A stretch of 64,000 nt of DNA from an uncultured Sandaracinaceae bacterium (GCA_964495565.1 CAZBWQ010000001.1:52166-116165), one strand, 5' to 3'; numbered from the stretch's first letter, positions 39,550 to 62,229 are shown. Program-made: numbers and translations. Notes: a model not told the origin generated them from the sequence alone.

Positions 39550-39583
39550 GCGCCCCGTGCGGGCGCTCCTATACTGGGTCTCG

Positions 39584-45624: not shown

Positions 45625-47454
45625 TCAGTGATGTCCGGTCGGTGCCGTCGAGCCCGCCGGTACGCGGATGTGCTCGACCAACTCTTGTACCTCCTCGGGA
45701 GGAGGTGGCGTGAATCGGCCGACCACGAAGACCACGATGAAGTTGATCAACATCCCGACCGCGCCGATGCCTTCCGGTGAAATCCCGAACCAGTACTGAT
45801 CCGGCGTACCGCCCATGAACTTGAAGTAGATGATGTAAGCAGCGGTGAAGACGATGCCCACGAGCATCCCTGTCACCACGCCTTCGCGGTTGGCCTTCTT
45901 GGCGAAGACTCCGAGGATGATCGCCGGGAAGAACGACGAGCAGGCGAGGCCGAACGCAAACGCGACGACTTGTGCCACGAACCCTGGCGGATTGATGCCG
46001 AAGTACCCCGCGATGACCACCGCGAAGCCCGCGGCGACGCGCGCTGCGAAGAGCTCCTGCTTCTCCGTGATTTGCGGGGCGAACACACGCTTCAGCAGAT
46101 CGTGGCTGATCGAGGTGCTGACCACCAAGAGCAAGCCGGCTGCGGTCGAGAGCGCGGCCGCCAACCCACCGGCGGCAACCAGGGCGATCACCCATGCTGG
46201 GAGCTTTGCGATCTCCGGATTTGCGAGCACGATGATGTCGCGGTCGACGTAGAGCTCGTTGGCGCTGTCCGGGTTGGGGTTTTTCACCACCCGCTGGCCG
46301 TACTCACCCCGCGCTGGCGAGCCGTCGGGCGCCGTGGCGAAGTCGGGTTTCCCACCGGCTACGGCATCGCCGGCCACGTACTGGACCTTGCCGTCACCGT
46401 TCTTGTCCGTCCAAGCCAAGAGACCGGTGTTCTCCCAGGTCTTGAACCACTGGGGAATCGACTTTTGGCCTTCGACTTGGGCGTAGCTCGCGCCTTCGAC
46501 GGTCTGAATGAGGTTCGTGCGTGCGAATGCCGCCACGGCAGGCGCGGTCGTGTAGAGCAGGGCGATGAAGAAGAGCGCCCAACCGACGCTGGTCCGCGCG
46601 TCACGCACTTTGGGCACCGTGTAGAAACGCACGATGACGTGGGGCAACCCGGCCGTGCCGGCCATGAGCGCGCCCGTGATGCACAACACGTCCAGCATCG
46701 ACTTCTTGCCGCTCGTGTATTCGGCGAAGCCGAGCTCGGTGTTCAGCTGGTTGAGCTTGTCGAGAAGCTTGACGTTCTCGCCATTGGCAATCTGTGAGCC
46801 AACTTCGCCACCGAGAGCCGCCCCGAACCCGATCTGCGGGATCAGGTGATTCGTGAGCAAGATGCTGATGAAGAACGCCGGAACCAGATACGCGAAGATC
46901 AAGACGCAGTACTGCGCCGCCTGGGTATAGGTGATGCCTTTCATGCCGCCCAAAACGGCGTAAAAGAAGACGATGGCCATCCCGATGAGCACGCCGGTAT
47001 TGATGGGGACCTCGAGGAACCGACTGAACACCACACCGACGCCGCGCATCTGGCCGGCGACGTACGTGAACGAAACGAACACCGCGCACAGAACTGCGAC
47101 GATGCGTGCCCCGTTCGAGTAATAGCGGTCGCCGATGAAGTCAGGCACGGTGAATTTGCCGAATTTGCGCAAGTACGGTGCCAACAGCAGTGCCAAGAGC
47201 ACGTAGCCGCCCGTCCATCCCATCAGATAAACGGCGCCGTCGTATCCCATGAACGAGATCAAGCCGGCCATGCTGATGAAAGAAGCCGCGCTCATCCAAT
47301 CCGCGCCCGTGGCCATTCCGTTGACTACGGGGTGAACGCCTCGACCGGCGATGTAGAAATCGCCCGTCGTGCTGGCCTTCGACCAAATCGCGATGCCGAT
47401 GTAGAGCGCGAAGGTGCCGCCCACGATGATGAATGTCCAAGTCTGTACGTCCAT
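45625..47454 (-). CDS. sodium:solute symporter family permease, large subunit (ActP-related, VC_2705-like subfamily)
   Basis: SSS motifs are present (GADWMSAASFISMAGL, YDGAVYLMGWTGGY). At 609 aa it carries a soluble insertion, and it is paired with an upstream DUF4212-type small subunit. Confidence 0.9.
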   Translation of the reverse strand: MDVQTWTFIIVGGTFALYIGIAIWSKASTTGDFYIAGRGVHPVVNGMATGADWMSAASFISMAGLISFMGYDGAVYLMGWTGGYVLLALLLAPYLRKFGKFTVPDFIGDRYYSNGARIVAVLCAVFVSFTYVAGQMRGVGVVFSRFLEVPINTGVLIGMAIVFFYAVLGGMKGITYTQAAQYCVLIFAYLVPAFFISILLTNHLIPQIGFGAALGGEVGSQIANGENVKLLDKLNQLNTELGFAEYTSGKKSMLDVLCITGALMAGTAGLPHVIVRFYTVPKVRDARTSVGWALFFIALLYTTAPAVAAFARTNLIQTVEGASYAQVEGQKSIPQWFKTWENTGLLAWTDKNGDGKVQYVAGDAVAGGKPDFATAPDGSPARGEYGQRVVKNPNPDSANELYVDRDIIVLANPEIAKLPAWVIALVAAGGLAAALSTAAGLLLVVSTSISHDLLKRVFAPQITEKQELFAARVAAGFAVVIAGYFGINPPGFVAQVVAFAFGLACSSFFPAIILGVFAKKANREGVVTGMLVGIVFTAAYIIYFKFMGGTPDQYWFGISPEGIGAVGMLINFIVVFVVGRFTPPPPEEVQELVEHIRVPAGSTAPTGHH

Positions 47455-47481: not shown

Positions 47482-47754
47482 TTAGTCCTCGTGCACGCCG
47501 TACTCTCGGTCCAGCTTGTTCATTCGCCACGCGTAGACGAAGATCAGGACCACGAATACGTAGATGGAACCCTGCTGCGAAAACCAGAATCCGAGCGGAA
47601 AGCCGGTGCCCGGAATGGTGATGCTGTTGAGCGCGTCCGCCCAGAAGATGCCCGCCCCGTAGGAAACGAGCCACCAAATCACGAGCAGGGTGGCCAAAAG
47701 ACGAATGTTCTTCTTCCAGTAGTCCTGTGCCTGCTGCTTCTTCGATTCGCTCAT
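47482..47754 (-). CDS. DUF4212-type putative solute:sodium symporter small subunit
   Basis: 90 aa with 2 TM segments. GFPLGFWFSQQGSIYVFVVLIFVYAWRMNKLDREYG matches my memory of DUF4212. It does not resemble YjcH/DUF485. Confidence 0.8.
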   Translation of the reverse strand: MSESKKQQAQDYWKKNIRLLATLLVIWWLVSYGAGIFWADALNSITIPGTGFPLGFWFSQQGSIYVFVVLIFVYAWRMNKLDREYGVHED

Positions 47755-47787: not shown

Positions 47788-49704
47788 TCAGCCCTTCTTC
47801 AAAAGCGCCTCGACCACCGTTGGGTCGGCGAGCGTCGAAATGTCTCCGAGTTGATCGGCTTCTCCTGCGGCGATCTTCCGCAAGATGCGTCGCATGATCT
47901 TGCCCGAGCGTGTCTTGGGCAGCCCGTGGACGACGCGAACCTCATCCGGCGTGGCAATCGGGCCGATCACTTGTCGTACCTGCTCTTTGAGCGCGCCCTG
48001 TAGCTCCTGCGGGTTCCACTCCGCGTCTGCGATCGGGACTACGAAGGCGAAGATTCCCTGGCCTTTGATCTCGTGCGGACAAGGCACCACGGCGGCTTCT
48101 GCCACCGCCTGGTGTGCCACGAGCGCGCTCTCGACCTCGGCGGTGCCCAGCCGGTGCCCCGACACGTTGATCACGTCGTCCACGCGGCCCGTGATCCAGT
48201 AGTAGCCATCTTCGTCTCGCCGGCAGCCGTCACCCGTGAAGTAGAACGGCGGATACTGGGAGAAATACGTCTCGAGAAACCGCTTGTGGTTGCCGTGGAT
48301 CGTGCGGGCTTGGCCGGGCCAGGGATGTGTGATGCACAAGTAGCCGCTGACGTCGTTACCCTCGATGATTTTCCCCTCTTGATCGACGATGGCCGGCTCG
48401 ATGCCGAACAGCGGCAGGGTGGCCGAACCCGGTTTCGTGGGGGTCGCTTTCGGCAGCGGGCTAATCAGGATGCCTCCCGTCTCCGTCTGCCACCACGTGT
48501 CGACGATCGGAATCTTGCCGTCGCCGACCACGTCGCTGTACCAACGCCATACCTCCGGGTTGATCGGCTCGCCCACGGTTCCGAGAACCCGTAGGCTCTT
48601 GCGGCTCGAGCCCTTGACCGGCTCCGAGCCCTCTCGCATGAGGGCCCGGAGCGCGGTGGGCGAGGTATAGAGAGTCGTCGCGCCGATGTCGTCGACGACC
48701 TTCCAGTATCTACTTGGGTCGGGGTAGGTAGGCGTCGACTCGAACATGACCGTGGTGACGCCATTCGCGAGCGGACCGTAGATGATGTACGTGTGGCCCG
48801 TAATCCATCCAATGTCCGCTGCGCAGAAGTGCACGTCGTCCGGGCCGATGTCGAACACGTACTTGAACGTCGACGCCGCGTAGGTCAGGTACCCGCCCGT
48901 CGTGTGTACGAGCCCTTTGGGCTTTCCCGTCGAGCCCGACGTGTACAGGATGAAGAGCGGATCTTCGGATGCCATCCATTCCGATGGGCACGTCACGCGG
49001 TGCTCGGCCATCGCTTCGTGCATCCACACGTCCCGCCCTTGATGCATCTCGACCTCGGTGTCGGTTCGTTTCACGACCAGCACCTTTTCGACCACGGCGA
49101 GGCCCTCCACCGCATCGTCGGCAATTCTCTTCAGAGGAATGCGCTTGCCGCCGCGAAGACCCTCGTTTGCGGTGACCAAGATCTTCGCCTCGGCATCGAT
49201 GATTCGATCGCGTAGCGCATCTGCGCTGAAGCCGCCGAATACGATCGAATGCACCGCGCCGATCCGCGCACACGCGAGCATCGTGTAGGCGAGCTCGGGT
49301 ACCATCGGCAGATAGATGCAGACGCGATCGCCCTTGCCGACTCCATACGATCGCAACGTATTGGCCACGCGGCCGACGGCGGTCTTGAGCTGGCTGAAGG
49401 AGATGCGCTCGTACTCCCCAGGCTCGTCTTTGACGTAGATGATCGCCGTTTTATCGGGGTTCTTGGCTGCATGCCGATCGACGCAGTTCGTCGCGGCATT
49501 CAAACGGCCGCCGCCGAACCATACGAATTCGCCCGGGCCGTCTTGCTCGAAGGTGCTGTACGGCTCGTAGAACCAATGAAGCTCGTTTGCCTCCTCGCGC
49601 CAGAAGGCATCGCGTTCGGAGAGGCTTCGCTGGTAGAGCCGACGGTACTCGTCGAGGTTGCTGATGCGTCGTCGTGTCTCGAGGGAAGGTTGTTTGAGTG
49701 TCAT
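47788..49704 (-). CDS. acs: acetyl-CoA synthetase (acetate--CoA ligase)
   Basis: 638 aa. The motifs YTSGSTGKPKG, WWQTETGG and KTRSGKIMRR, with the acetylatable Lys, are present. Confidence 0.95.
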   Translation of the reverse strand: MTLKQPSLETRRRISNLDEYRRLYQRSLSERDAFWREEANELHWFYEPYSTFEQDGPGEFVWFGGGRLNAATNCVDRHAAKNPDKTAIIYVKDEPGEYERISFSQLKTAVGRVANTLRSYGVGKGDRVCIYLPMVPELAYTMLACARIGAVHSIVFGGFSADALRDRIIDAEAKILVTANEGLRGGKRIPLKRIADDAVEGLAVVEKVLVVKRTDTEVEMHQGRDVWMHEAMAEHRVTCPSEWMASEDPLFILYTSGSTGKPKGLVHTTGGYLTYAASTFKYVFDIGPDDVHFCAADIGWITGHTYIIYGPLANGVTTVMFESTPTYPDPSRYWKVVDDIGATTLYTSPTALRALMREGSEPVKGSSRKSLRVLGTVGEPINPEVWRWYSDVVGDGKIPIVDTWWQTETGGILISPLPKATPTKPGSATLPLFGIEPAIVDQEGKIIEGNDVSGYLCITHPWPGQARTIHGNHKRFLETYFSQYPPFYFTGDGCRRDEDGYYWITGRVDDVINVSGHRLGTAEVESALVAHQAVAEAAVVPCPHEIKGQGIFAFVVPIADAEWNPQELQGALKEQVRQVIGPIATPDEVRVVHGLPKTRSGKIMRRILRKIAAGEADQLGDISTLADPTVVEALLKKG

Positions 49705-49738: not shown

Positions 49739-49754
49739 CGCAAGAGTTGTACCA
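49739..49754 (-). promoter_or_regulatory. candidate sigma-54 promoter for acs (minus-strand 5'-TGGTAC-AACTC-TTGCG-3')
   Basis: GG and GC lie at the canonical -24/-12 spacing, about 35 nt upstream of the acs ATG. AAGGTG lies between the element and the ATG. A GAFTGA activator gene lies immediately upstream. Confidence 0.45.
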
Positions 49755-49862: not shown

Positions 49863-51203
49863 TCATTCGGGAGGCTGAGAGTCGCGACGCGGGATGCCCA
49901 TGCGCTGCCTACGTTCCCAGAGTGTCTTGCGACTGATCCCGAGGCGCTTGGCCAGCTCGGTCTCGCTCAGCTCGTGCTGGTGCGACAATACGAAGCGCCG
50001 AAGGTAGCCTTCGAGAGAGGGGTCTTCGCCAGCCTCGGCGTCGACGCCATTCGAGCCGTTGGAGCCGTTCGTGCGATCGAGGGCCAAGAGCTCTTCCGTG
50101 ATCGGACCCGATTCGTGTAAAATCACGGCTCGCTCGACGGCATGCTGCAGCTCGCGCACGTTGCCCGGCCACTTGTGTCGCATGAGCGCCTTCTTGGCTC
50201 GTTCGTCGAGCTCGAGCATGGGGCGGCCCAGCTTCGCGGTGGCCCGTCGCACGAAGACCTCGGCGAGCGCCAGGATGTCGTCCCCGCGCTCGCACAATGG
50301 CGGCAGCTCGATCTCGACGACGTTCAGCCGAAAGTACAGATCTGCCCGGAATTCGCCGCGTTCGACGAGTAACGGAAGGTCTCTGTGCGTGGCGGCGACG
50401 AGCCGGATGTCGACCGCCTCGGCTTGCCGTGCGCCGACCCGACGAACCTCTCGTTGCTGAAGCATGCGGAGTAGGCGAGCCTGCGCGGCTTGTGTGAGCT
50501 CGCCAATTTCGTCTAGGAACAACGTGCCTTCGTCGGCCGCGTGCACCAGGCCGTCTTTGCGGGTCGCCGCGCCAGTAAACGCACCCTTTTCGTGCCCGAA
50601 GAGCTCCGATTCCAACAAGGTCTCCGGAATCGAAGCGCAGTTGACCGGAACGAAGTCGCCCGGCCGTCGGCTCTGTTTGTGCACGGCCCGTGCAATCAGC
50701 TCCTTGCCCGTTCCCGACTCGCCCAAAACGAGCACGGTTGCCGCCGTGGGTGCGACCTTGCGCGCTCGGCGCAGTGCTTCCTGCATCGGGCTCGAGTCCG
50801 AGGCGACGATCTGGTAGAGCTCATCTTCGGAGGTGGGCGGGTAGGAGTCCCGCGACTCGCGGTTTCGAAGCACTCGCTCCACGGCCCGGCTGAGCTCTTC
50901 GGGCTCGAACGGCTTGGAGAGATAATCCACGGCGCCTCTCTTCATGGCATCGACCGCTTCGCTGACCGAGCCGTACGCCGTCATCACGATGACCGGAACT
51001 TGGCCTACGCGCTCGATGAGGACGTCGCCTCTCTCGCCCGTCAGCCGCACGTCCGTGATGATGAGATCGAACGACTCGGGACCCGCAGCCTCCGCTTCTT
51101 TGACGCTCGGTACGTCGGTGACCGCATGGTCCTGCCTGGACAGGATGCGTTTGATCTCCGCGCGGATGACGCGCTCATCCTCCACCAACAGGATCTTCGC
51201 CAC
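49863..51203 (-). CDS. sigma-54-dependent response regulator (NtrC/CbrB-like)
   Basis: GTG start. It has a receiver domain (LLVEDE...ITDVRL), an AAA+ domain (GESGTGKE and the GAFTGA loop) and a C-terminal Fis-type HTH ([21 protein letters not shown]). Confidence 0.9.
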
Positions 51204-54123
51204 CGCCGATTAGTACCAAAGGAGCGGCAGATCCTTCAATGCCTATGTTTTCGTGGGCTTGGAGGGTGACCGTGAAGCGGCTGCCGCCCGAAGGACGAGG
51301 ACGGTAGGTGAGCGAGCCACCGCAGCGTTCGACGATTTGCCGAGACACCGAGAGTCCGAGGCCCGTTCCCTGCATGTCGCCTTTGGTCGTGAAAAATGGC
51401 TCGAAAACTCGTTCGGAAAGAGCCTCGGGAATTCCGGGGCCTTCGTCGTCCACGTGGATCCGAACCATCCGCCCATCCGTCCAGGTGCTCACATATACAG
51501 TCGCTTCCGGGGACGACGCTTGGCGCGCATTGTTGAGCAAGTTGACCAGCACCTGCGTTAACCCTTCCGGAGTCGCCCTCACGGGCGCATCGCCGCGGAG
51601 ATTCAGATCGATGCAACAGCCTTCGGTCTCCAACTTGGCCAGCTCGACGGCCCTGTGGACCGCTCGCGCCACCGAGACGGGTTGCAGCTCCACCGGCGTC
51701 TCGTCGCGACGGCTGAAGGTGAGCAAGCTCTGAACGATGCCATGAATGCGTTGGGCCTCTTCGACGATGATCTCGAGACGCTCGGTGGCATCGTCGGCCG
51801 AGGGATCGGCCACCAGATTCTTGGCGACCATCAGGATTCCCGTCAGCGGATTGCCGACTTCGTGCGCGACGCCCGAAGCCAAGGTGCCGATGGACGACAA
51901 CCGATCCTTGTGTGCGACGTGCCTCTCCAGTTGCCGCAGCGCAGTGATGTCTTCGACGACGAAGACACGGCCTTCCTCGGCTTCGGAAGCGATCGTCGCC
52001 GTCTGTGCCCGAAGCTCCATCGACCGATCGCCCGAGCTGAATTCCCTCTCGATCGCCGTTCCGCTCGGTTGACTCGCCAGGTCTTCGAACAGCGCTCGCC
52101 AAGGCCCAGGCAAGTCGCTCAGCGTGTGGCCGCAGGTGTCGTCCTCGGGCAACCCCGAGATGCGCTCGAGCCGAGGGTTCCAGACGACCACCTCGCCATG
52201 GTCATCGACCGTGCATACTCCGACCGGCAGCTCCGACATGAGCTTGGACAAGTAACGCCGTGCGGCATGGGCAGGGGAGGTTGGTAGTGATGCTCCATCG
52301 TGGTCCAGCGAATCGAGCTCTCGAAATGCACGAAGGCGTTCTGCGAGGGCGTCGGCACGCACCGGACGACCTCCGTGAATGTAGGTTCGTGCCGCCAGAG
52401 GCCCAATTCTTTCGCTGAGACGGCCCTGCAGCTCGTTGACCAGCTTCAGCATCTCGGGCCGATCCCGAGGCGGCCAATGCACGTCCGCCGCGCCCGCCGC
52501 CTCGTAGATCTCCCGGACTGCCGTCTTCTTTCCCACGTACGAGGTCAAACGTTCCTTGAGCGCCTCGGCCGACTCGGGGACCTGCAAGAGCCGGGTGACA
52601 CGAGGCTCCCGGCAAGCTTCCGCCGCGATCCGCTCTTCCTCGGAGCGGGTGGTGAAGAGGGACACACCCATGAACACGAGCGCATGGGCGGTCAGGCTCA
52701 ACCAGATGACCGGCCCTCGCGCGCTCGGGTCATCGAAACCGAACAGCGAGTAGATTCGTGAAACACCGACTTCGTAGCCGAGTAGTGGCATTGCCGTGAG
52801 GAGCGCCCACGCGGTTGCTCCCACCACCAAGCCCGAAAGCACACCGGCTCGGGTGGCACGACGCCAAAACAGGGTGGCGAGCAGACCGGGAAGCAGGTGT
52901 GAGACGGCCACGAAAGAGGCGAGTCCGAGGTCCACCAACGAATGGCGTCGAGGGAGCGTGAAGTGCAGGAGCAATCCCGCCACGATGACGCCCACGATCA
53001 TCATGCGACGAAAGACCGCCCACCGTGTCAAGAGCGACTCGGGGGTCGGACCGAAGCGCGGCAGGAGGTAATTGCCTACCATGCCGCTGAGAGCGATGGA
53101 CGACACCAGGATCATCGCGCTCGCGGCAGAAACGGCACCCAGAAAGACCAGCGTTTGCAGCGCGGGTGAGCTCTGTACGGCGATCAGCACGTACACGTCC
53201 GGGCGCGTGCCGGGTGTGGCGAGCTCGCGTCCAGCCCAATAGAGAACCGGCACGGGAAGATTGATCGCGAAGAGGTAGAGAGGAAGGGCCCATCTCGCGG
53301 TCCGGAGGCTGTTCGGGCCGGGCCGCTGTCCGAACGCGACGAAGAACTGACGAGGCAGAAGAAACGCAGCGCAAAAAGTGATGAAGACCAGCGCCAACCA
53401 GGAATCTCCCACGTCCCTCATCACCGGTTGGGTCATGCTTTGCACCAGCTCCGGCCGTTCGCGAAGGTACTCGTTGAGCCCGCCGAACCCTCCGAAGGTC
53501 ATGAATAGGGCGGCGACTCCGACGACCAACAGCGCGACCAGCTTGAAGATGCTTTCCCACGCCAACGTCGCGATCAGACCAGGGCGGTGAGCGCGTCCAT
53601 CGGCGTAACGAACCCCCAGAGCAACCGCGAAAGCGCTCAAGAGAATGGCGTAGACCGAGCCGACTTCCTCGCTCGGCTCTTGACCGACGAGAATCGCAGA
53701 TCCGTCCACGACCGCGCGAAGCTGGAGAGCAATGTACGGAAGCAAGCCCGCGACCATGAAGATCGACACGACGGCACCCACCGTTCTGCTCTGAAACCGA
53801 AAAGCGAATACGTCGGCGATGCTACCCAAACGATATCTGTCGACGAGCTCGCCGACGGGCGCCCACAAGAACGGGATCGCGATGCAGGAAAGAGTCACCC
53901 CGAAGTAGATGGCGAGGAAGTCATATCCTTCGGTGGCGGCGAAGCCGACACTTCCGAACAAGGTCCAGGTGGTCGCGTAGACGCCGAGGGCCAGCGTGTA
54001 GCTGACCGTGTTCCGGCCCAATCGCCCCCAACGAGGGGATCGCTCCACGATCTCGGCACCGATGATGTAGAGCCCCAGGAGCGCGGCCGACAGAAGAAAG
54101 AGTACGACCTGATCAAGCGGCAT
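51175..54123 (-). CDS. sensor histidine kinase with N-terminal sodium:solute-symporter (SLC5) domain (CbrA/CrbS-like)
   Basis: About 500 aa of polytopic SSS-like region come first. A PAS-like segment follows (VGVCTVDDHGEVVVWNPRLERISGL). The kinase core has the H-box SGVAHEVGNPL, N-box LVNLLNNARQA and G-boxes DDEGPGIP and GTGLGLS. There is no receiver domain. Confidence 0.9.
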   Translation of the reverse strand: MPLDQVVLFLLSAALLGLYIIGAEIVERSPRWGRLGRNTVSYTLALGVYATTWTLFGSVGFAATEGYDFLAIYFGVTLSCIAIPFLWAPVGELVDRYRLGSIADVFAFRFQSRTVGAVVSIFMVAGLLPYIALQLRAVVDGSAILVGQEPSEEVGSVYAILLSAFAVALGVRYADGRAHRPGLIATLAWESIFKLVALLVVGVAALFMTFGGFGGLNEYLRERPELVQSMTQPVMRDVGDSWLALVFITFCAAFLLPRQFFVAFGQRPGPNSLRTARWALPLYLFAINLPVPVLYWAGRELATPGTRPDVYVLIAVQSSPALQTLVFLGAVSAASAMILVSSIALSGMVGNYLLPRFGPTPESLLTRWAVFRRMMIVGVIVAGLLLHFTLPRRHSLVDLGLASFVAVSHLLPGLLATLFWRRATRAGVLSGLVVGATAWALLTAMPLLGYEVGVSRIYSLFGFDDPSARGPVIWLSLTAHALVFMGVSLFTTRSEEERIAAEACREPRVTRLLQVPESAEALKERLTSYVGKKTAVREIYEAAGAADVHWPPRDRPEMLKLVNELQGRLSERIGPLAARTYIHGGRPVRADALAERLRAFRELDSLDHDGASLPTSPAHAARRYLSKLMSELPVGVCTVDDHGEVVVWNPRLERISGLPEDDTCGHTLSDLPGPWRALFEDLASQPSGTAIEREFSSGDRSMELRAQTATIASEAEEGRVFVVEDITALRQLERHVAHKDRLSSIGTLASGVAHEVGNPLTGILMVAKNLVADPSADDATERLEIIVEEAQRIHGIVQSLLTFSRRDETPVELQPVSVARAVHRAVELAKLETEGCCIDLNLRGDAPVRATPEGLTQVLVNLLNNARQASSPEATVYVSTWTDGRMVRIHVDDEGPGIPEALSERVFEPFFTTKGDMQGTGLGLSVSRQIVERCGGSLTYRPRPSGGSRFTVTLQAHENIGIEGSAAPLVLIGGGEDPVGGG

Positions 54124-54280
54124 GGTCGGAGCGGCGTAGCAGCGCCACGAGGGCGATCAGCGCAAGCCAAAAGACGAAGGGAGACCACCAGGTCTGGAGC
54201 CAAAGAGCGCGCACCGGCGTCGCGATCAGCACTACGGCGACCACGAAGAGCACGAGCGCGCGCTCCTTGTCCGGATTCAT
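54113..54280 (-). CDS. small two-TM protein (55 aa) translationally coupled between prpE and the SSS-kinase
   Basis: Hand translation gives MNPDKERALVLFVVAVVLIATPVRALWLQTWWSPFVFWLALIALVALLRRSDHAA. Its ATG overlaps the prpE stop (ATGA). Its stop lies 8 nt inside the kinase ORF. It falls below the ORF-track length cut-off. Confidence 0.45.
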   Translation of the reverse strand: MNPDKERALVLFVVAVVLIATPVRALWLQTWWSPFVFWLALIALVALLRRSDHAA

Positions 54281-56166
54281 CAGGCGTACCCGATTACCTG
54301 CAGTCGCTGCGTGATTTCATCCAGGATTGCGGGATCGTCGATCGTCGCTGGCATTCGCCACGCGGTCCGGTCTGCAATCTTCTTCATCGTCCCCCGCAAG
54401 ATCTTGCCGGAGCGAGTCTTGGGAAGGCGTTGTACGACGATGGCCGTCTTGAACGACGCGACCGCCCCGATCTCGTTTCGGACCAGTTGGATGACTTCGG
54501 AGACGATGTCGTGATGAGGACGATCGACACCGGAGTTGAGAACCAAGAACCCGAGTGGGACTTCGCCCTTGAGGTCGTCTGCGACACCGATGACGGCACA
54601 CTCCGCAACGTCGGGATGCGAAGCGACCACTTCCTCCATCCCGCCGGTCGACAACCGGTGTCCGGCCACGTTGATGATGTCGTCGGTGCGCGACATGACG
54701 TACACGTAGCCATCCTCGTCGATGTATCCGGCGTCGGCGGTCTTGTAATAGCCCGGAAACTCTCGCAGATAGGAGCTCACGAAGCGTTCGTCGTCGTTCC
54801 AGAGAGTCGGCAGGCTTCCGGGCGGCAGGGGGAGCTTGATCACGAGCGCCCCGATCTTGCCGCGCTCGAGCTCATGACAGGCCTCGTCGACGACTCGTAC
54901 GTCCCATCCTGGGGCGGCGACGGTTGGCGATCCATGCTTGACCGGAAGCTGCTCGATTCCGAGGCAGTTGGCGCAGATCGCCCAGCCGGTCTCCGTCTGC
55001 CACCAGTGATCGATCACGGGCACTTGGAGCTTTTCTTCCGCCCATTTCAACGTGTCGGGATCGGAACGCTCGCCGGCTAGAAAGAGCGCGCGTAGCGAGC
55101 TGATGTCGTACTTGCCGATCAGGGCCCCATGAGGGTCTTCTTTCTTGATGGCACGAAACGCCGTGGGAGCGGTGAACAGGCAGTTGACGCCGTGGTCTGC
55201 GATGACTCGCCAGAAAGCGCCTGCATCGGGAGTGCCGACCGGCTTTCCCTCGTAGAGAATCGTGGTGTTCCCGTTCAGTAGGGGGCCGTAGACGATGTAG
55301 GAATGCCCGACGACCCACCCTACGTCGGAGGCCGCCCAATAGACGTCACCCGGCTCGACGCCGTACACGTTCTTCATCGTCCATCGGAGTGCGACGGCAT
55401 GTCCGCCATTGTCGCGCACCACCCCCTTGGGAATGCCGGTCGTGCCCGAGGTGTAGAGAATGTACAGAGGATCGGTCGCCATGACCGGAACGCAGTCGTG
55501 GGGCTTTGCCGCTGCCACCGCGTCCTGCCACGAGACGTCGCGACCTTCGGTGAGCTCGCATTCGCAGCTCTCACGTTGGCGAATGATGCACCGACTTGGC
55601 TTGTTCTTCGAAAGCTTGATCGCCTGATCGAGCAGCGGTTTGTATTCGATGACGCGCGTACCCTCGATTCCACACGAAGCCGACACGATGATTTTCGGTT
55701 GCGCGTCGTCGATGCGGGTGGCCAGCTCTTGGGGCGCGAATCCGCCGAAGACGACCGAGTGCACGGCGCCCAACCGGGCGCACGCCAGCATGGCGATCAC
55801 CGCTTCCGGAATCATCGGCATGTAGATCAGCACGCGATCGCCCTTGGACACACCTTGCGCGGCCAGAGCGCCGGCAAACAACGCCACCTCCTGCCGGAGC
55901 TGCCGATAGGTGTAGGTCCGCCGCGTGCGGGTCACGGCGCTGTCGTAGATGAGGGCTGCCTGATTGCCTCTCGTCTCGACGTGACGATCCACCGCATTGT
56001 AACAAGTGTTCAACTGGGCTCCGGGGAACCACCGGTAAAAAGGTGCATTCGAGTCGTCGAGCACTCGATCCCACGGGGTTATCCAGTCGATTCCTTCGGC
56101 TGCCTCGCCCCAGAAGCCCTCGGGGTCTTCCAGGGAACGGCGCCTCATTTCGAGAATTCCCGACAT
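54280..56166 (-). CDS. prpE: propionate--CoA ligase (propionyl-CoA synthetase)
   Basis: The true ATG is at 56166, with GGAGG 7 nt upstream (MSGILEMRRRSLEDPEGFWGEAA...). It is PrpE-like throughout (YTSGTTGIPKG, WWQTETGW, KTRSGKILR). The upstream part of ORF 54280..57015 is a shadow extension. Confidence 0.9.
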   Translation of the reverse strand: MSGILEMRRRSLEDPEGFWGEAAEGIDWITPWDRVLDDSNAPFYRWFPGAQLNTCYNAVDRHVETRGNQAALIYDSAVTRTRRTYTYRQLRQEVALFAGALAAQGVSKGDRVLIYMPMIPEAVIAMLACARLGAVHSVVFGGFAPQELATRIDDAQPKIIVSASCGIEGTRVIEYKPLLDQAIKLSKNKPSRCIIRQRESCECELTEGRDVSWQDAVAAAKPHDCVPVMATDPLYILYTSGTTGIPKGVVRDNGGHAVALRWTMKNVYGVEPGDVYWAASDVGWVVGHSYIVYGPLLNGNTTILYEGKPVGTPDAGAFWRVIADHGVNCLFTAPTAFRAIKKEDPHGALIGKYDISSLRALFLAGERSDPDTLKWAEEKLQVPVIDHWWQTETGWAICANCLGIEQLPVKHGSPTVAAPGWDVRVVDEACHELERGKIGALVIKLPLPPGSLPTLWNDDERFVSSYLREFPGYYKTADAGYIDEDGYVYVMSRTDDIINVAGHRLSTGGMEEVVASHPDVAECAVIGVADDLKGEVPLGFLVLNSGVDRPHHDIVSEVIQLVRNEIGAVASFKTAIVVQRLPKTRSGKILRGTMKKIADRTAWRMPATIDDPAILDEITQRLQVIGYA

Positions 56167-56271
56167 GTGATTCGCCTCCGGCGCGCGAGAATACAGTCCC
56201 ATCTCGCCGATTGCGAGCACGATCGAGCCCGTTGCATCCTGGCCCCGGATCTCCAAGGATCGGCCCTGACC

Positions 56272-58200
56272 ATGTCGTCCGACTCCATGATTTTGACCGT
56301 GGCGAGCCGTCTGGGGCGTCACCCTCCTTTCGACCGGCTCGAGCCGGAGCTTCTGCAGCAGGTCGCGCGGCGGGTTCGGATTCGGTACTTGGAGCGAGAC
56401 GAGGTCGTGTTCGAGCAGGGACAGCCTGCCAAGCCCGAGTTCTATGTCGTGGTCAAGGGGGAGGTCGCCGTCAGCCAGCAGGTCGACGGCGAGACCGTGC
56501 TGGTCGACGTGTGTGATGACGGTGACATCTTCGGGGTCCGGGCTCTGCTCGCCGAACGGCGGTACGCCGCGCGGACCCAGGCCAAAGACGACACCCTCCT
56601 GTACGTCCTTCCGAAGGAAACTCTGGACGAGCTGATACGCGACGAGCCCCGGGTCACGATGTTCTTCGCCGCCGGCTTCGCAGCAGACCTGCCCATGCGC
56701 TTGGACAAGAACCGCCTCGAGGCGGTCCGGGCCGCGAGGCTCCACGACCGTGCCAGCGATGCGGGCGACGACGTTCGGCGCGTGGACCCCGTGCGCGACG
56801 TGCTGACCTGCAGTGCGGAAACCAGCATTCGAGAGGCTGCCTCGCTCATGAGCGAGCGAAACGTGGGGTCCATTCTGATCGTGGACGACCAACGCCGCCC
56901 GGTCGGAATCGTGACGGATTCCGACCTTCGATCGAAGGTCGTCGGACAGGCACGCGACGTATCGGACGTCATCTCCGAAATCATGAGCTCTCCCGTGCTG
57001 ACGATCGACGACCAAACCACCGTCTCTTCACTCATCGCCACCGTGATGAAGAAGCACGTGCACCACTTCGCCGTCACCGAAGATGGGACGCCCGCGACTC
57101 CGATCGTCGGCATCGTTTCGGAGCACGACATTCTGAAGACCCAAGGCAGCCATCCGACCGTGATCTTGTCCGAGATCAACCGCGCCAAGACGAAAGAGCG
57201 GCTGCGCGCGTTGCGAGATCAGGCAGAAGATCTCCTAGGGCGCTACCTCGAGGAAGAGGTAGGCATGGGCTTTTTGTCCAACATGATCACCGAGATCAAC
57301 GACACGCTGATTCGACGCGCGATTCAGTTGGCACTTCGGGATCTGAAAGAGGAGGGCCACTCTCCACCTGTTCCTTTCTGTTGGCTCGCATTGGGAAGCG
57401 AAGGCCGCGAGGAGCAACTGCTTCGCACCGATCAAGACAACGCCATCGTGTACGCAGACCCGGATGGAGACGAGGAGTCGACACGGGAGATCTTTCTCGA
57501 TTTCGGAAAGCGCATCGTCGACACGCTCGTGGATGCGGGTTTTTCGCGCTGCCCAGGGGAAGTGATGGCGAGCAATCCCAAATGGAACCAGCCCATGAGC
57601 GCGTGGAAGCGATACTTTTCCGACTGGATTCGCGAGCCCGAGAAGATCGCGGTCATGCATACCAACATCTTCTTCGATCTGCGTCCCGTCGACGGAGACG
57701 ACTCACTCGCGAACGAGCTGAAGTCACACATCTTCGAGCGCATCAAGACGGACCGGGCTTTCCTCACCTTCTTCGCACAAAATGCGACGCAGAATCCGCC
57801 TCCGCTCAGCTTCTTTCGAAACATGATCGTCGAAAGCAGCGGCGAGCATCGAGACGCGTTCGACATCAAGGCGCGCGCCATGACCCCGCTCGCCGATGCA
57901 GCACGCGTATTGATTTACGACCTGGGCATCAACATCTACGGCAGCACGGCCGAGCGTTGGCAGCGAATCGGAGAAGTCGACGAGACGTTGACGCGTTTGT
58001 CCGGAGAAGCTGCCATGGCGTATGAAATATTGATGCGAATTCGGGCCATGGAGGGTCTCGCCAGAGGGAGCTCGGGCCGGTATGTGCACATCAAAGAGCT
58101 GAACAAGCTCGAACGGCAGACGCTTCGGAACACCTTCTCGGTGGTCAAAGACGTTCAGCTCATGCTGACCTCCAGATACCGAATCGATTTCTTGCGTTGA
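56272..58200 (+). CDS. cyclic-nucleotide-binding + CBS-pair + DUF294 nucleotidyltransferase + DUF294_C protein
   Basis: The cNMP domain includes FYVVVKGEVAV...GDIFGVRALL. Two CBS motifs are present. The pol-beta-type NTase motif is LALGSEGREEQLLRTDQDNAIVY. The ATG is at 56272, with an alternative at 56287. The 5' part of ORF 55303..58200 is antisense shadow. Confidence 0.85.
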   Translation: MSSDSMILTVASRLGRHPPFDRLEPELLQQVARRVRIRYLERDEVVFEQGQPAKPEFYVVVKGEVAVSQQVDGETVLVDVCDDGDIFGVRALLAERRYAARTQAKDDTLLYVLPKETLDELIRDEPRVTMFFAAGFAADLPMRLDKNRLEAVRAARLHDRASDAGDDVRRVDPVRDVLTCSAETSIREAASLMSERNVGSILIVDDQRRPVGIVTDSDLRSKVVGQARDVSDVISEIMSSPVLTIDDQTTVSSLIATVMKKHVHHFAVTEDGTPATPIVGIVSEHDILKTQGSHPTVILSEINRAKTKERLRALRDQAEDLLGRYLEEEVGMGFLSNMITEINDTLIRRAIQLALRDLKEEGHSPPVPFCWLALGSEGREEQLLRTDQDNAIVYADPDGDEESTREIFLDFGKRIVDTLVDAGFSRCPGEVMASNPKWNQPMSAWKRYFSDWIREPEKIAVMHTNIFFDLRPVDGDDSLANELKSHIFERIKTDRAFLTFFAQNATQNPPPLSFFRNMIVESSGEHRDAFDIKARAMTPLADAARVLIYDLGINIYGSTAERWQRIGEVDETLTRLSGEAAMAYEILMRIRAMEGLARGSSGRYVHIKELNKLERQTLRNTFSVVKDVQLMLTSRYRIDFLR

Positions 58201-58201
58201 G

Positions 58202-58924
58202 GTGCCTTTGATCCGCGAGCTCGTCAGGCGCTGGTTGCTTCCCGGTCGGTTGCCCAAGCACGCGCAAACGTGGCCCGAGCCGCTGCGAGAGTACATGTTG
58301 CAGCAGAAGCGGTTGTCCAAGGAGACGAAGCTCGAGGACGCGCGGTTCGTGGTCTTCGACACGGAGACCACCGGACTCGACCTTTCGGCGAATAGGCTCT
58401 TGTCGATCGCGGGAGTTGCCATCGTGGGTCTCGAAATCGAGCTCGACGATGCTTTCGAGGCCATGGTCCTTCAGAGCGACGTGGGAGGCGCCGAGGCTGC
58501 CGTCATTCACGGCCTGGTATCGAGTGACCTCGGCTCCGGCGTGCCGCAAGACCAAGCTGCTGCGGAGTTCTTGGCCTTCGTCGGGGACTCGGTGCTGGTC
58601 GCTCATCACGCAGCCTTCGACATTCGCATGCTGAAGAAGGCCATCGAGCCACATCGTGGCGCCCACGTTTGGAGCCCGAGCATCGACACCTCGCAGCTGG
58701 CGCGACGGGTCGAAGATGCCGCCATGTCTTCGGGACGAGCGCAAGGATCCGAGTCTCGTGAGAGCTACCAGCTGGATGTCCTCGTCGAGCTCTACGGCAT
58801 CGAAGCCCCGGAAAGACACACCGCCGCAGGTGATGCCTTGGCGACCGCCTTGCTCTTCCAGAAATTGATCAAGAAGGCACAACGCCGTGGAATTCAAACG
58901 CTCGGAGACTTGCTGTCGCGCTGA
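58202..58924 (+). CDS. DEDDh 3'-5' exonuclease (DnaQ/PolIII-epsilon-like)
   Basis: The GTG start lies 1 nt after the upstream stop. Exo I is FVVFDTETTGLD, Exo II is LVAHHAAFDIRML and Exo III is HTAAGDALATA. Confidence 0.85.
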   Translation: MPLIRELVRRWLLPGRLPKHAQTWPEPLREYMLQQKRLSKETKLEDARFVVFDTETTGLDLSANRLLSIAGVAIVGLEIELDDAFEAMVLQSDVGGAEAAVIHGLVSSDLGSGVPQDQAAAEFLAFVGDSVLVAHHAAFDIRMLKKAIEPHRGAHVWSPSIDTSQLARRVEDAAMSSGRAQGSESRESYQLDVLVELYGIEAPERHTAAGDALATALLFQKLIKKAQRRGIQTLGDLLSR

Positions 58925-58959
58925 GAGTGGTGTGCTATGAGCGGTCGAATCGAAGCTCG

Positions 58960-59763
58960 ATGCGAAAGAAGACGTTCACCCATCCGCCATGCGCTTTCGT
59001 GCGGTTTCTGAGCCTTTCGTTTGCGTTTGCCTCGTTGGTCGGTTGCCGATGCGGAGCGATGGGATCTTCGTCGGAGCTCACGGTCTTTGCGGCCTCCTCA
59101 CTCGCCGATGCGTTCCAAGCGCTCGAACGCGACTTCGAGTCCCAGCACCCGGATGACGAGGTGTCGCTTGCATTCGGTGGCAGCCAAGTCCTTCGGTTGC
59201 AGATCGAGCAAGGTGCGCCGGCTGACGTCTTTGCATCGGCCGACCAACGTCACATCGCTGCCTTGGTCGGAGCCGGCCTCGTCCGCGAGAGCGAAGTTTT
59301 CGCCCACAGTGAGCTCGCGCTGATCGTACCGACTGGCAACCCTGCCCGCATCGAGTCTTTCGCGGACCTCCCACGTGCGAATCGAGTGGTGCTCGGAGCG
59401 CCGGAAGTGCCGGTGGGGCGCTACTCGGCGGAGCTGCTTCGGCGCGCTGCACAATCTTACGGACCCGAGTTCCGCAACGAGGTGCGTGAACACGTGGTTT
59501 CCGAGGAGAGCAACGTGCGGTTGGTCCGGGCCAAGGTCGAGCTCGGCGAAGCCGATGCGGCGATCGTATACCGCCCGGACGTGACCCCTCGAAGCCAGAT
59601 TCGGATCATTCCCATTCCCGCGGTGCTGAACGTGCGCGTGGAATACCACATCGGCATCATCGCGGAATCCGATCGGCGAGAGCTGGCGCTGCGCTGGATC
59701 TCGTACCTACGATCCGAGCGAGCCCGCGAAATCTTGACCGAGCACGGGTTCATGGTGGATTGA
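58960..59763 (+). CDS. modA: molybdate ABC transporter substrate-binding lipoprotein
   Basis: The lipobox LVGC is present. ModA-like segments include [38 protein letters not shown] and DAAIVY. Confidence 0.85.
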
Positions 59764-60608
59764 TGCTGCGCCGACCCGGCACGAACGCGCTCGTTTCCGT
59801 GCTTGCGTGGAGCTCCGCGCTGGCTCTTCTCATGCTCATCGTCCTGCCGATCGCGGCGTTGGCGTTGAGTAGCTCGGCTTCGTCGCTTGCCGCGGGCGCG
59901 CTCCATCCGTTGTTTCTGCCGGCGCTTTCGTTGAGTGCGAGGACCACGATCGCCAGTCTCGGCATCGTGGTGATCAGCGGAACTCCGTTGGCATGGTGGC
60001 TAGCGACGGGTCCCTCGCGCTACACGCGGATCGTCGAGCTCCTGGTGGTCTTGCCCATCGTCGTCCCGCCTGCCGTCTTGGGCGTGGCCATGCTCCAGAC
60101 CTTCGGGCGCAGTGGTCTCTTGGGTCCGTCGCTCGACGCGCTCGGCGTCCAGATTCCATTCACGACCTCCGCCGTCGTTCTGGCGCAGGTAGTGGTGGCC
60201 GCGCCGTTTTACGTCGAATCGGCGGCGATCGCGTTTCGCCGCGTCGACGTGGACTTGATGCTCGTGGCACGGACGCTCGGTGCGACCCCGGCAGCCGCGT
60301 TTTTCAAGGTCGCCATCCCGGTCGCCGCATCGGGCCTGTTGGCCGGTGCCGCTCTCTCCTACGCTCGCGCCATCGGAGAGTTCGGGGCGACGCTGCTCTT
60401 TGCCGGGAATCTTCCTTCGACGACACAAACCATGCCGCTCGCCATCTACACTTCGCTCGAGTCGGACGTCCGCGCGGCACTTGCTCTGTCGATCGTGCTC
60501 GTCGGCATTGCCGTCGTGCTCTTGTTCATCTTGCGGGTAGGACCCCAAGCGCTTTCCTCCTGGACCCATCAACGACGCGAGTCCGCTCCGAAAGGAGATC
60601 GACCATGA
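59763..60608 (+). CDS. modB: molybdate ABC transporter permease
   Basis: A TGATG overlap joins it to modA. The EAA-type loop ([25 protein letters not shown]) and the segment [10 protein letters not shown] are present. Confidence 0.85.
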
Positions 60609-61360
60609 GTTGGAACGTTCGGCTGCGTGGAGGCGTAGGCGGTTTTCGACTCGATGCGGGCATCGACGGGACCGCGCAGCCCATCGTAATCATCGGTCCC
60701 AACGGGGCGGGAAAGACGACGCTCCTGCGCATGATCGCAGGCTCTCATCACCCGTCCGACGGGCAAATTCGGATCGACTCCAAGATCGTCTACGATTCGG
60801 AGCGCGGAATCGATCTCCCGCCGGAGGCGCGGGAGATCGGCTACGTACCGCAGGGGTTTGGTCTCTTTCCTCACTTACGCGTGGTGGACAACGTGGCCTT
60901 CGGTCTTTCGGTAGGCCCGAGACGAGAGCCTCGCAGGACACGACACGCGGCCGCGGTGCGGCTTCTCGCGGAGCTCGATTGCGCCGACCTAGCGGACCGC
61001 CTCCCGTCCGATCTCTCGGGCGGCGAAAAACAGCGTGTCGCACTCGCACGAGCGCTCATCGTCGAGCCGCGGCTCCTGCTGCTGGACGAGCCTCTGGCCA
61101 CGTTGGATCCCGGTTCACGCCGAAAAGTCCGTGCGTTTCTCGGCCATCACCTGAAGCAGCGGTCGGTGCCGGCCATCCTCGTGACTCACGACGCCCGAGA
61201 CGCCGAGGCGCTCGGCGCCGAGCTGTTCGTGCTCGAAGAAGGTCGAATCGTTCAGCGCGGGTCTGCGGCCGAGCTGCGTGCGCGTCCGGCCACGGCCTTC
61301 GTCGCCGAGTTTTTCGATGCTGCCCAGCGGTCCCCGGCTATTTCGGGGTTCGACCGCTGA
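60605..61360 (+). CDS. modC: ABC transporter ATP-binding protein (ModC-like, no TOBE domain)
   Basis: An ATGA overlap joins it to modB. Walker A is GPNGAGKTT, the signature is [15 protein letters not shown] and Walker B is LLLLDEP. The protein is only 251 aa. Confidence 0.8.
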
Positions 61361-61511
61361 CCAGTCCCATCACCAGGCTGACGACGAAGACGACCAGGAA
61401 CGCCACGAACAAGATCTGCGCGATCGTCGCGGCGCCTGCGGCAATGCCTCCAAAGCCGAATACACCCGCAATGATGGCGAGGATGAAGAAGATTAAAGCC
61501 CAACGTAACAT
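61338..61511 (-). CDS. DUF1328 (YtjA-like) small membrane protein
   Basis: GGAGG lies 7 nt upstream of the ATG at 61511. [35 protein letters not shown]... closely resembles E. coli YtjA, from memory. Confidence 0.8.
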
Positions 61512-61533
61512 GAGAAGTCCTCCGGCTGTGTAC

Positions 61534-62229
61534 TCATGCACGAGCCGTGCCACCGGGATTCGAGCGTCTTCTCCCCAGGGGCGCGGTCCAGGCGACGATG
61601 GGTACGAAACCCCCGTAGTAGAGCACGTTTGGCACGATGCGGAGGAGGAAGCCTTCGTCGGCTCGAGTGAACAGGATGACGGCATCGGCCGACGCCCAAA
61701 GTGCGTAGTAGAAGACCCCGAACAGCGTCACCAATCGAACCCAGCGAGCGGCCTGAACGCGCCGAGGCAGATACACGAAGAGCAACGTGCACAGAAGCAC
61801 GACGAACGACAGTTCATAGACCAGAAAAAGCACGCGCGACTCGTCCGTTCCGAGCATGAGCATCAGTGCTTGCGAGCCGATGGGCACCACCAATGTCCAA
61901 GCCAGCGCTCGTCCCAAACCTCGTACCGTGATCGACAAGCTGCCGTTGGGACGGGCGCTTTCGACGAAGAAGAAGTAGCGGAAGTCTCCCAGCAGAACGA
62001 ATATGAGGGGCACCCAAGGCGGAGCGGATTTCGTCGATTCGAGCCCGAGGATTTGATTCGCAGTGAGCCACGCGTCGAAGAGGGAGACGACGGTGAGCGC
62101 GACGCAGAACCACCGCACGTGAGGCGACAACCCCCGACGCGCGAGGGCGAGCAGAAGGCCCAGGACGGCGCTGGCCCACAAAAGGCCTGGATGCTGAAGG
62201 GGAGATGCGTAGAGATCGGCGAAGCTCAC
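61534..62229 (-). CDS. hypothetical polytopic membrane protein (231 aa)
   Basis: The GTG start overlaps the upstream stop (GTGA). It has about 6 hydrophobic segments, and I recognise no family. Confidence 0.5.

Follow-up and report, generated by a model that had tools for sequence, protein, structure and literature searches.

What do a sensor-equipped nucleotidyltransferase and a 3'-5' exonuclease do for a bacterium when the two are encoded side by side? The question is raised by two plus-strand genes, here called A and B, in a 64,000-nucleotide stretch of DNA from an uncultured Sandaracinaceae bacterium (GCA_964495565.1 CAZBWQ010000001.1:52166-116165); we refer to the whole of this stretch as the window and count positions from its first letter. 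Gene A specifies a DUF294 protein with N-terminal sensor domains, and gene B specifies an exonuclease of the DEDDh type. An initial annotation, made from the sequence alone, suggested that they could be a ligand-gated writer and eraser linked to acetate/acyl-CoA status. Here we show that A and B are one dedicated module, and we propose, as a tentative reading that we hold to be somewhat short of an even bet, that they make up an antagonistic two-enzyme switch in which a sensor-gated writer would place an inhibitory nucleotide mark, the DEDDh enzyme would erase it, and the output would be SSS-type carboxylate uptake and possibly acyl-CoA synthetases.

Results

The two genes form one dedicated module

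That A and B are co-conserved far beyond chance is evident from gene-neighbourhood counts. We used three samples of 80 species-level GTDB loci each, the six-frame translations of which were scored with purpose-built hidden Markov models (HMMs); the loci were the best-scoring 80 from motif scans and not a random census. In the window-like sample (Myxococcota, Chlorobiota, Bacteroidota and Leptospiraceae), an exonuclease gene lay directly downstream of the DUF294 gene, on the same strand, at 72 of the 75 loci with enough sequence. The Proteobacteria-seeded sample, which takes in Campylobacterota, Desulfovibrio, Aquificota, Chloroflexota and Acidobacteriota as well, had the exonuclease directly downstream at 54/69 loci and elsewhere in the flank at 5 more. 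When the search was reversed and seeded with the exonuclease, a DUF294 gene was found within 4 kb of 67 of 77 evaluable homologues. Co-occurrence is, in other words, 78-96% in the forward direction and 87% in reverse, and the pair is present in at least eight phyla.

Comparison of the window by blastn with the corresponding locus of a 77%-identical relative (L003) revealed homology at 56251-58922 only, that is, over exactly the two genes. In addition, the two activities occur naturally in a single polypeptide of ~700 aa with the order RNase_T-CBS-CBS-DUF294-DUF294_C, first met at L235:4752-6896 (+), in which the exonuclease replaces the cyclic-nucleotide-binding (CNB) domain. This architecture is common to the best 120 database matches, at identities down to 49% and with both active sites kept, and its sources are mostly Hyphomicrobiaceae and other Pseudomonadota. 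Because the pairing is bidirectional, because synteny is limited to the two genes and because fusions exist, we conclude that the two proteins work as one unit.

The order of genes around this core varies. An annotated P. aeruginosa plasmid/chromid-type record reads DUF485-actP-DUF294-exonuclease; records from Ruegeria, Paracoccus and Agrobacterium read DUF4212-SSS-DUF294-hypothetical-(response regulator)-long exonuclease, and a Skermanella plasmid begins in the same way, with no exonuclease in the stretch shown. On a Hymenobacter plasmid (L087) the order is swapped, the exonuclease coming first, and the pair is kept; it lies there in a polysaccharide-utilisation context (GH43/LacI), as does the pair on a Vibrio cyclitrophicus plasmid (L082; kdgR/alginate lyase), and neither copy is a neighbour of acs or actP. 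In Alphaproteobacteria, a conserved hypothetical protein of ~170 aa, without a Pfam match, is encoded between DUF294 and the exonuclease (Table 1), and in Halomonas-group and Neisseriaceae loci it accompanies DUF4212-SSS instead. Exonucleases from Alphaproteobacteria are long proteins of 480-707 aa, and a PAS domain is present in one of them (L235:2486-4606).

In the window, the TGA stop codon of gene A (58198-58200) is overlapped by a GAGG Shine-Dalgarno sequence (58199-58202), and gene B could start either at GTG 58202, which leaves a 1-nt gap, or at TTG 58208, which leaves 7 nt. We favour the TTG because of the gene-caller product (238 aa) and the position of the GAGG sequence; the 1-nt gap given in the initial annotation holds with the GTG start. 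Whichever start codon is used, A and B are tightly coupled.

Gene A looks like a protein nucleoside monophosphate-transferase

Pfam bears out the domain order that had been claimed for the first protein (CNB type, CBS pair, nucleotidyltransferase (NTase), DUF294_C), with each match above its gathering score (Table 1). With PF03445, PF10335, an N-terminal CNB-like domain and a CBS pair, gene A is a COG2905-type protein. It has 1977 homologues at E<=1e-10 among 8000 scored candidates, and the closest of these (75-88% identity) come from named Polyangiales or Myxococcales metagenome-assembled genomes, which makes Polyangiales (Myxococcota) the most likely origin of the window. The Pol-beta NTase signature (hG[GS], D-x-D and a third carboxylate) is present, and the catalytic aspartates, checked on alignment, are in place: D387, D389 and D469, together with G375 and S376, are invariant in 45 homologues with identity down to 47%. 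The G, S and D-x-D of the site are also invariant in proteobacterial members with only 23-28% identity to gene A, in which the third carboxylate is Asp or Glu, and they are kept in the fusion family.

An AlphaFold model of full-length gene A (predicted local distance difference test (pLDDT) 82) gave, when searched with Foldseek, only CNB and CBS matches. A separate model of residues 296-642 (pLDDT 84, predicted template modelling score 0.85) was searched against the PDB, and the only matches at E<=1e-3 were to DrrA and two GlnE domains. The best was DrrA (6yx5_B; E 5e-6, template modelling (TM) score 0.61/0.62 over 355 columns, 13% identity), followed by the adenylylation domain of GlnE (3k7d, E 9.5e-6) and its N-terminal domain (1v4a, E 5e-5). 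Aminoglycoside nucleotidyltransferases (E~0.4-0.5) and DncV (E 1.7) were not significant matches, and none of the 50 fold matches listed was a poly(A) polymerase, the sole tRNA-processing entry being 3wfr_F at E 1.2. At the level of sequence, a PDB search with the NTase/DUF294_C part (residues 288-642) found no relative, its top matches being de novo designs with E>0.02, and gene A has no match to the Pfam families GlnE and GlnD_UR_UTase. DUF294_C has been grouped with the C-domains of GlnD, GlnE and DrrA, in the same Pfam clan as HEPN (PMC3710099, Anantharaman et al.). On account of the modelled fold matches and this grouping, gene A looks like a protein nucleoside monophosphate (NMP)-transferase of the GlnE/DrrA structural class. 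The initial annotation had allowed for RNA, a protein or a nucleotide signal as the object of the pair; the fold evidence favours protein modification and disfavours RNA tailing and messenger synthesis.

With GlnE and GlnD, gene A has in common a Pol-beta NTase core, the same type of helical C-domain and an active-site motif of the type G-[SG]-x-G-R-x-E…[ST]-D-x-D, which those two proteins also have. GlnE and GlnD are bifunctional writer/eraser enzymes. In them writer and eraser are kept together by fusion, and in the DUF294 family transferase and exonuclease are kept together by adjacency or fusion. The systems differ in the opposing enzyme (DEDDh in the DUF294 pair, a second NTase domain in GlnE, an HD domain in GlnD), in the sensors (CNB-like and CBS domains in gene A, ACT domains in GlnE/GlnD) and in context (carboxylate uptake as against nitrogen assimilation). 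The AMPylation domain of Legionella DrrA/SidM, a Tyr-AMPylase of Rab1/Rab8, resembles gene A in fold only; DrrA is a secreted effector with guanine nucleotide exchange factor and phosphatidylinositol 4-phosphate-binding domains, and its eraser, SidD, has a PP2C-like fold.

The CBS pair may respond to an adenosine ligand

Gene A had been described as gated by cyclic nucleotides. In functional cAMP- or cGMP-binding domains of the PKA, PKG and CRP type, the Glu of the phosphate-binding cassette contacts the ribose 2'-OH and the Arg contacts the cyclic phosphate. Alignment of the CNB-like domain of gene A to PKA and PKG places V89 at the cassette Glu and Y98 at the Arg. Y98 is invariant in the window's clade (45-sequence alignment), and V89 is invariant in an alignment of 10 sequences and is the consensus residue in that of 45; some alphaproteobacterial DUF294 members retain the cassette Glu and R-S-A. 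Because both hallmark contacts are replaced, by V89 and Y98, gating of gene A by a cyclic nucleotide is doubtful.

In the CBS pair, residues G212/T215/D218 and G280/S283/D286 are invariant in the 45-sequence alignment. The invariant stretches read G-I-V-T-D-S-D and G-I-V-S-E-H-D and resemble typical G-h-h-[ST]-x-x-D ribose-binding motifs, a likeness that would plausibly make the CBS pair a sensor of an adenosine ligand.

Gene B encodes a complete DEDDh exonuclease

The description of the second gene as a complete DEDDh exonuclease stands. Gene B matches RNase_T (PF00929) with E 1.3e-17 and 65.2 bits (cut-off 24), and it has, in the numbering of the 238-aa product, the Exo I D-x-E (D51, E53), the Exo II D138 and the Exo III H-x4-D (H204, D209). 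Among partner exonucleases with 26-69% identity, D51, E53, H204 and D209 are invariant and D138 is nearly so. By sequence, gene B is nearest to PolC/DnaQ-type DNA exonuclease domains and Cas2-DEDDh, and among solved structures the PolC exonuclease domain of T. maritima (2p1j, 5e-18) is the nearest. It falls below the NCBIfam cut-offs for PRK09145 (113 bits vs 189), PRK07740 (116.8 vs 261) and dnaQ (61.7 vs 222.7). The likeness to the DnaQ/PolC-type exonucleases (2p1j, Cas2-DEDDh) extends to all of the Exo I/II/III residues, in the His variant. However, gene B is a stand-alone protein with a family-specific N-terminal extension, and it is genomically dedicated to DUF294 rather than to a polymerase or CRISPR adaptation.

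The N-terminal extension (58208-58340; loci L001-L247) contains a recurring aromatic motif ~16-28 residues before the D-x-E, which in Myxococcota and Bacteroidota takes the form WPxxLRxYM or PDFWxxYL; the proteobacterial form is GxYxxLF, and some Betaproteobacteria have Phe. The motif may serve to dock the transferase. We considered a conserved Tyr in the extension as a universal NMP acceptor and rejected it, the aromatic position being Phe in several Betaproteobacteria.

Neighbouring genes and published genetics connect the pair to carboxylate uptake

The tie of the pair to acs and SSS-permease genes, as given in the initial annotation, is real. An SSS permease lies within 1.5 kb at 39/55 loci of the proteobacterial set, usually with a DUF485 or DUF4212 small subunit, and an SSS or acs gene is found in the flank at 41/67 window-like and 45/55 proteobacterial-set loci (61-82%). 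The most frequent operon among the Proteobacteria-seeded loci is (DUF485 or DUF4212)-SSS-DUF294-exonuclease.

In P. putida KT2440 the pair is PP_0354/PP_0353, an MxtR/ErdR target, and the PAO1 homologues of the pair adjoin actP/yjcH; the biochemical function of the pair is still unassigned in the literature (PMC9927547; bioRxiv 10.64898/2026.09.07.749794). PP_0354/PP_0353 is a direct target of a two-component system in which the kinase has an SLC5/SSS domain (PMC9927547), and the idea of protein nucleotidylylation has already been voiced (PMC5715377; bioRxiv 10.64898/2026.09.07.749794). The statement that the pair has no experimentally assigned function is correct for its biochemistry, but the pair has already been studied genetically in Pseudomonas.

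PP_0354/PP_0353, Pflu5625, the actP-adjacent proteins of PAO1 and COG2905 proteins have the architecture of gene A followed by an RNase_T-family exonuclease in one operon, and PP_0354/PP_0353 is like the window pair also in its neighbourhood theme, actP/yjcH together with acs. The window differs from the Pseudomonas system in several respects. Gene A shares only about 25% identity with a homologue from P. aeruginosa, its CNB-like domain is without the residues that contact a cyclic nucleotide, and the permease is of the DUF4212 type rather than YjcH/ActP. The adjacent regulator is sigma-54 NtrC-type and not of the CrbR/ErdR type, which to our knowledge is a type distinct from sigma-54 NtrC.

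Mutant phenotypes bear on the direction in which the two proteins act. On pyruvate, P. putida lacking the exonuclease (ΔPP_0353) was impaired like ΔactP-I and ΔyjcH, and P. putida lacking the transferase (ΔPP_0354) showed little or no phenotype; growth on acetate and succinate was unaffected by either deletion. A P. fluorescens mutant in the transferase gene pflu5625 had no phenotype. In S. amazonensis and P. stutzeri, random barcode transposon-site sequencing found an RNase-T-domain gene to be cofit with a DUF4212/SSS transporter (bioRxiv 10.1101/072470), and a polar effect behind this cofitness is unlikely because the gene numbering would put the RNase-T gene downstream of the transporter. 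The published phenotypes indicate that the exonuclease acts positively on transporter function and that the transferase is dispensable, the asymmetry to be expected of a writer that inhibits and an eraser that activates.

A writer/eraser switch and its alternatives

In the mechanism that we favour, gene A would be a sensor-gated transferase of the AMP/UMP type that puts an NMP on a hydroxyl of a target protein. The CBS pair would probably read adenosine-nucleotide or energy status, the CNB-like domain would probably bind a ligand other than cAMP or cGMP, and the two sensors would jointly decide whether the transferase 'writes'. Gene B, produced together with A, would be an active DEDDh phosphodiesterase that opposes A by removing the nucleotide mark. 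The chemistry of erasure would resemble 3'-5' exonucleolysis, in which water attacks the phosphodiester and the 5'-NMP leaves, with the protein hydroxyl replacing the penultimate 3'-OH. The mark would be inhibitory, hence the positive action of the exonuclease, and the output would be control of SSS-family monocarboxylate uptake (DUF4212/SSS or YjcH/ActP), possibly with accompanying acyl-CoA synthetases. We infer in this scheme that the substrate is a protein and which protein it is, as well as the nucleotide, the sensed ligands and the erasure of the same mark by the exonuclease. The writer/eraser logic first suggested for the pair fits the genetics and the fusions and is plausible, if unproven. 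Its most specific version, in which the DEDDh fold has been recruited as a protein de-nucleotidylylase and acts with a metabolite-sensing writer of the GlnE/DrrA kind so that SSS transporters or partner acyl-CoA synthetases are switched by reversible AMPylation/UMPylation, strikes us as unlikely when taken whole.

Several considerations weigh against the proposed switch. We know of no precedent for a DEDDh enzyme that hydrolyses a protein-NMP bond, and the sequence of gene B is nearest to those of the DNA exonucleases PolC, DnaQ and Cas2-DEDDh. No third gene was universally linked to the pair in the locus samples, and no target protein was identified there. Polyangiales relatives with 75-81% identity carry the pair with acs in the flanks at 0/8 and an SSS permease at 1/8, and some copies of the pair lie in polysaccharide-utilisation loci. 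Both P. putida single mutants grew less well on propionate, a result not obviously expected if the two proteins were purely antagonistic. Identity in the fold matches is only 13-15%, with TM scores of ~0.5-0.6, and the modelled fold would leave room for a small-molecule acceptor for gene A, as in the aminoglycoside nucleotidyltransferases. Finally, the co-occurrence samples consist of the best-scoring 80 of the motif scans.

A different division of labour would make the two proteins regulator and effector. The transferase would nucleotidylylate the exonuclease itself, as MntA does the HepT RNase, and would thereby switch the nuclease off on sensor input, and the exonuclease would do ordinary work on nucleic acids, for example by processing the 3' end of, or stabilising, the mRNA of the transporter operon or a small RNA on which expression of the transporter depends. 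Here each fold would keep its usual job, that of a protein AMP-transferase and that of a DnaQ/PolC-like nuclease, and obligate pairing without a third partner would be accounted for, as would the fusions; the genetics fit equally well, since cells without the exonuclease resemble those without the transporter and cells without the transferase are hardly affected. MntA-HepT (MNT-HEPN) is likewise a Pol-beta nucleotidyltransferase genetically paired with a nuclease. However, the partner of DUF294 is a DEDDh enzyme rather than a HEPN RNase, the gene A transferase is large and sensor-fused, and loss of a DUF294 transferase is not toxic, unlike loss of the antitoxin in MntA-HepT. No universally conserved Tyr/Ser/Thr acceptor is evident in the exonuclease, where the aromatic residue of the extension is Phe in several Betaproteobacteria, an enzyme covalently fused to its own inhibitor would be unusual, though possible, and no RNA target is known. 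We regard this arrangement as improbable, though a serious competitor.

The pairing of a Pol-beta transferase with a DEDDh exonuclease also recalls the tRNA 3'-end repair cycle, in which the CCA-adding enzyme is opposed by RNase T. By analogy, gene A could add untemplated nucleotides to the 3' end of RNA (or DNA) and gene B could trim them, so as to tune the stability of carboxylate-uptake transcripts. This would suit an exonuclease that is of the nucleic-acid type by sequence, and it is compatible with the genetic asymmetry. Yet CCA-adding enzymes, poly(A) polymerases and terminal uridylyltransferases are all absent from the significant fold matches of the model of residues 296-642 (3wfr_F, E 1.2), which are protein AMP-transferases only; the C-domain of gene A is of the GlnD/GlnE/DrrA type, and Pfam finds no RNA-binding domain in gene A; we consider 3'-end tailing quite improbable.

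It is very improbable, in our estimation, that gene A produces an (oligo)nucleotide messenger, linear or cyclic, for gene B to degrade. Sensor-fused nucleotidyltransferases with a partner nuclease would resemble make-and-break pairs of that kind, and DEDDh enzymes such as oligoribonuclease do degrade dinucleotides. Against this, the CD-NTase DncV is a fold match at only E 1.7, no effector or receptor gene is conserved beside the pair in the locus samples, and a GlnE-type helical domain would not be a feature of known messenger synthases. That gene B is a housekeeping DNA or RNA nuclease merely sharing an operon with a signalling protein, in keeping with the name 'DNA polymerase III subunit epsilon' that annotation pipelines give to the exonuclease, is effectively refuted by co-occurrence of 78-96% and 87%, synteny over exactly two genes and a populated fusion family, and is at odds with the transporter-like phenotypes of exonuclease mutants.

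The carboxylate cluster in the window is a secondary neighbour of the pair

As the initial annotation said, the pair is divergent from a carboxylate cluster, which comprises six minus-strand genes (Table 1), but the adjacency to acs is secondary here and confined to the closest sub-clade (86-88% identity), the members of which are arranged as in the window. In the 75-81% relatives, the aminopeptidase N gene (pepN; Peptidase_M1/DUF3458_C) lies immediately upstream of the pair, giving pepN-DUF294-exonuclease. A 38-nt relic of the 3' end of pepN is found at 56223-56260, within the intergenic region of the window (30/38 identity); its local score of 36 compares with about 15±2.3 for shuffles, 0/500 of which reach it (L001, L003, L004), and the alignment is strong for 3 of 7 relatives tested and weaker for the rest. 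Because pepN precedes the pair in the 75-81% relatives and its relic remains, the acs adjacency is secondary in the window's lineage, and to judge from these alignments the carboxylate cluster was brought next to the pair by rearrangement in the window's sub-clade. This move is weak independent evidence for selected proximity.

The membrane domain of the histidine kinase in the cluster is a weak SSF match (20.5 bits vs a cut-off of 22.8), and two acs and the DUF4212/SSS genes are adjacent to the kinase gene. Of the two acyl-CoA synthetase paralogues, the one next to DUF294 prefers propionate-CoA ligase models; compare the propionate phenotype in P. putida. The element TGGTACAACTCTTGCG upstream of acs1 is plausibly a promoter on which the neighbouring two-component system acts. 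Sigma-54 matches across the window number 27, which is not above the shuffle expectation of 22±4, and a sigma-54-like site with a better match, at 47168-47183 (-) within the coding sequence of the SSS permease, was therefore treated as chance. Scans of 56167-56271 for sigma-54 (TGGCAC-N5-TTGCW, <=2 mismatches) and sigma-70 promoters found nothing, and because this region has no sigma-54 site, co-regulation of the pair by the neighbouring sigma-54 regulator lacks support.

On the other side of the pair, modA and modB occupy 58927-60608, modA starting 2 nt past the exonuclease stop codon, and an open reading frame (ORF) for an ABC ATPase follows (~60605-61360). In Ruegeria (L081), as in the closest relatives (L006, L248, L250), the pair has these genes beside it. 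We rejected modABC as part of the module: it lies beside the pair at only 2/247 loci, a lineage-specific adjacency. A biotin-carrier and carboxyltransferase fusion (Biotin_lipoyl and Carboxyl_trans; 39557-41407 (+)) is encoded a few kb from the carboxylate cluster and may be an acyl-CoA carboxylase component relevant to propionate/acetate assimilation. Two further ORFs, 60610-62274 (+) and 62205-63200 (+), are probably not genes; they have no Pfam or NCBIfam match and overlap better-supported genes, namely those for the ABC ATPase (+) and for a cytochrome c and GTP cyclohydrolase I (-).

Table 1. Coordinates of the pair, its domains and the surrounding features (window positions, except in the last row, which gives positions within other loci)
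Feature	Position	Strand	Basis
Gene A, sensor-nucleotidyltransferase, 642 aa: CNB-like, CBS pair, DUF294, DUF294_C	56272..58200	+	translated ORF and Pfam
CNB-like beta-barrel, aa 38-124	56383..56643	+	cNMP_binding PF00027, E 1.1e-19
CBS pair (Bateman module), aa ~169-290	56776..57141	+	PF00571, two stretches, E 1.9e-23
DUF294 Pol-beta-fold NTase core, aa 317-457	57220..57642	+	PF03445, E 6.9e-49, 165.7 bits (cut-off 21)
Gene A active-site motif GSEGREEQLLRTDQD, aa 375-389	57394..57438	+	translation
Gene A third carboxylate, D469	57676-57678	+	alignment
DUF294_C helical 'substrate-binding' domain, aa 496-636	57757..58179	+	PF10335, E 3.8e-28, 98.5 bits (cut-off 22.5)
Coupling junction: gene A stop, GAGG Shine-Dalgarno overlapping the stop, GTG 58202, TTG 58208	58198..58210	+	sequence
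Gene B, DEDDh 3'-5' exonuclease, 238 aa (240 aa from GTG 58202), ~45-aa N-terminal extension	58208..58924	+	RNase_T
Divergent intergenic region, 105 bp, between acs2 and gene A	56167..56271	.	
Acyl-CoA synthetase 2 (acs2)	54280..56166	-	best model PrpE, 775 bits (below 955 cut-off); passes acs subfamily model
Sensor histidine kinase, CbrA/CrbS-like: SSS (SLC5)-like membrane domain, PAS, HisKA, HATPase	51175..54123	-	Pfam
NtrC-type sigma-54 response regulator, CbrB-like	49863..51203	-	Pfam/NCBIfam
Sigma-54-like -24/-12 element TGGTACAACTCTTGCG	49739-49754	-	35-50 nt upstream of acs1, just downstream of the sigma-54 regulator gene
Acetyl-CoA synthetase 1 (acs1; second acs)	47788..49704	-	
DUF4212 SSS-permease small subunit	47482..47754	-	own HMM 122 bits; PF13937 annotated in syntenic relatives
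SSS-family permease, large subunit, DUF4212-associated type	45625..47454	-	PF00474 8e-50; own HMM 956 bits
~170-aa hypothetical protein (other loci)	L081:8781-9299, L085:7784-8281, L086:7871-8395, L084:7824-8405		

Discussion

The pair in the window adds one more member to a kind of gene pair that the literature describes as being of unknown function. The window's own copy is ordinary, and its value is that of one more phylogenetically distant witness, which adds breadth only. In public data the DUF294 family forms about 4,000 clusters at 50% identity, and it sits in regulons for the uptake of acetate, propionate, pyruvate and lactate in pseudomonads, vibrios, roseobacters, Bacteroidota, Chlorobiota and Myxococcota. 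A fold likeness to protein AMP-transferases only, an obligate or fused exonuclease and the asymmetry of the mutants together replace the vague label 'signal-transduction protein' by a hypothesis that can be tested.

If gene B is indeed an eraser, this would represent a new catalytic role for the DEDD superfamily and a new layer of control on short-chain-fatty-acid uptake, of relevance to host-microbe interactions and to the engineering of production strains. Should the pair prove to be an AMPylation/UMPylation switch, it would constitute a widespread and previously unrecognised form of post-translational control of organic-acid uptake, spanning at least eight phyla.

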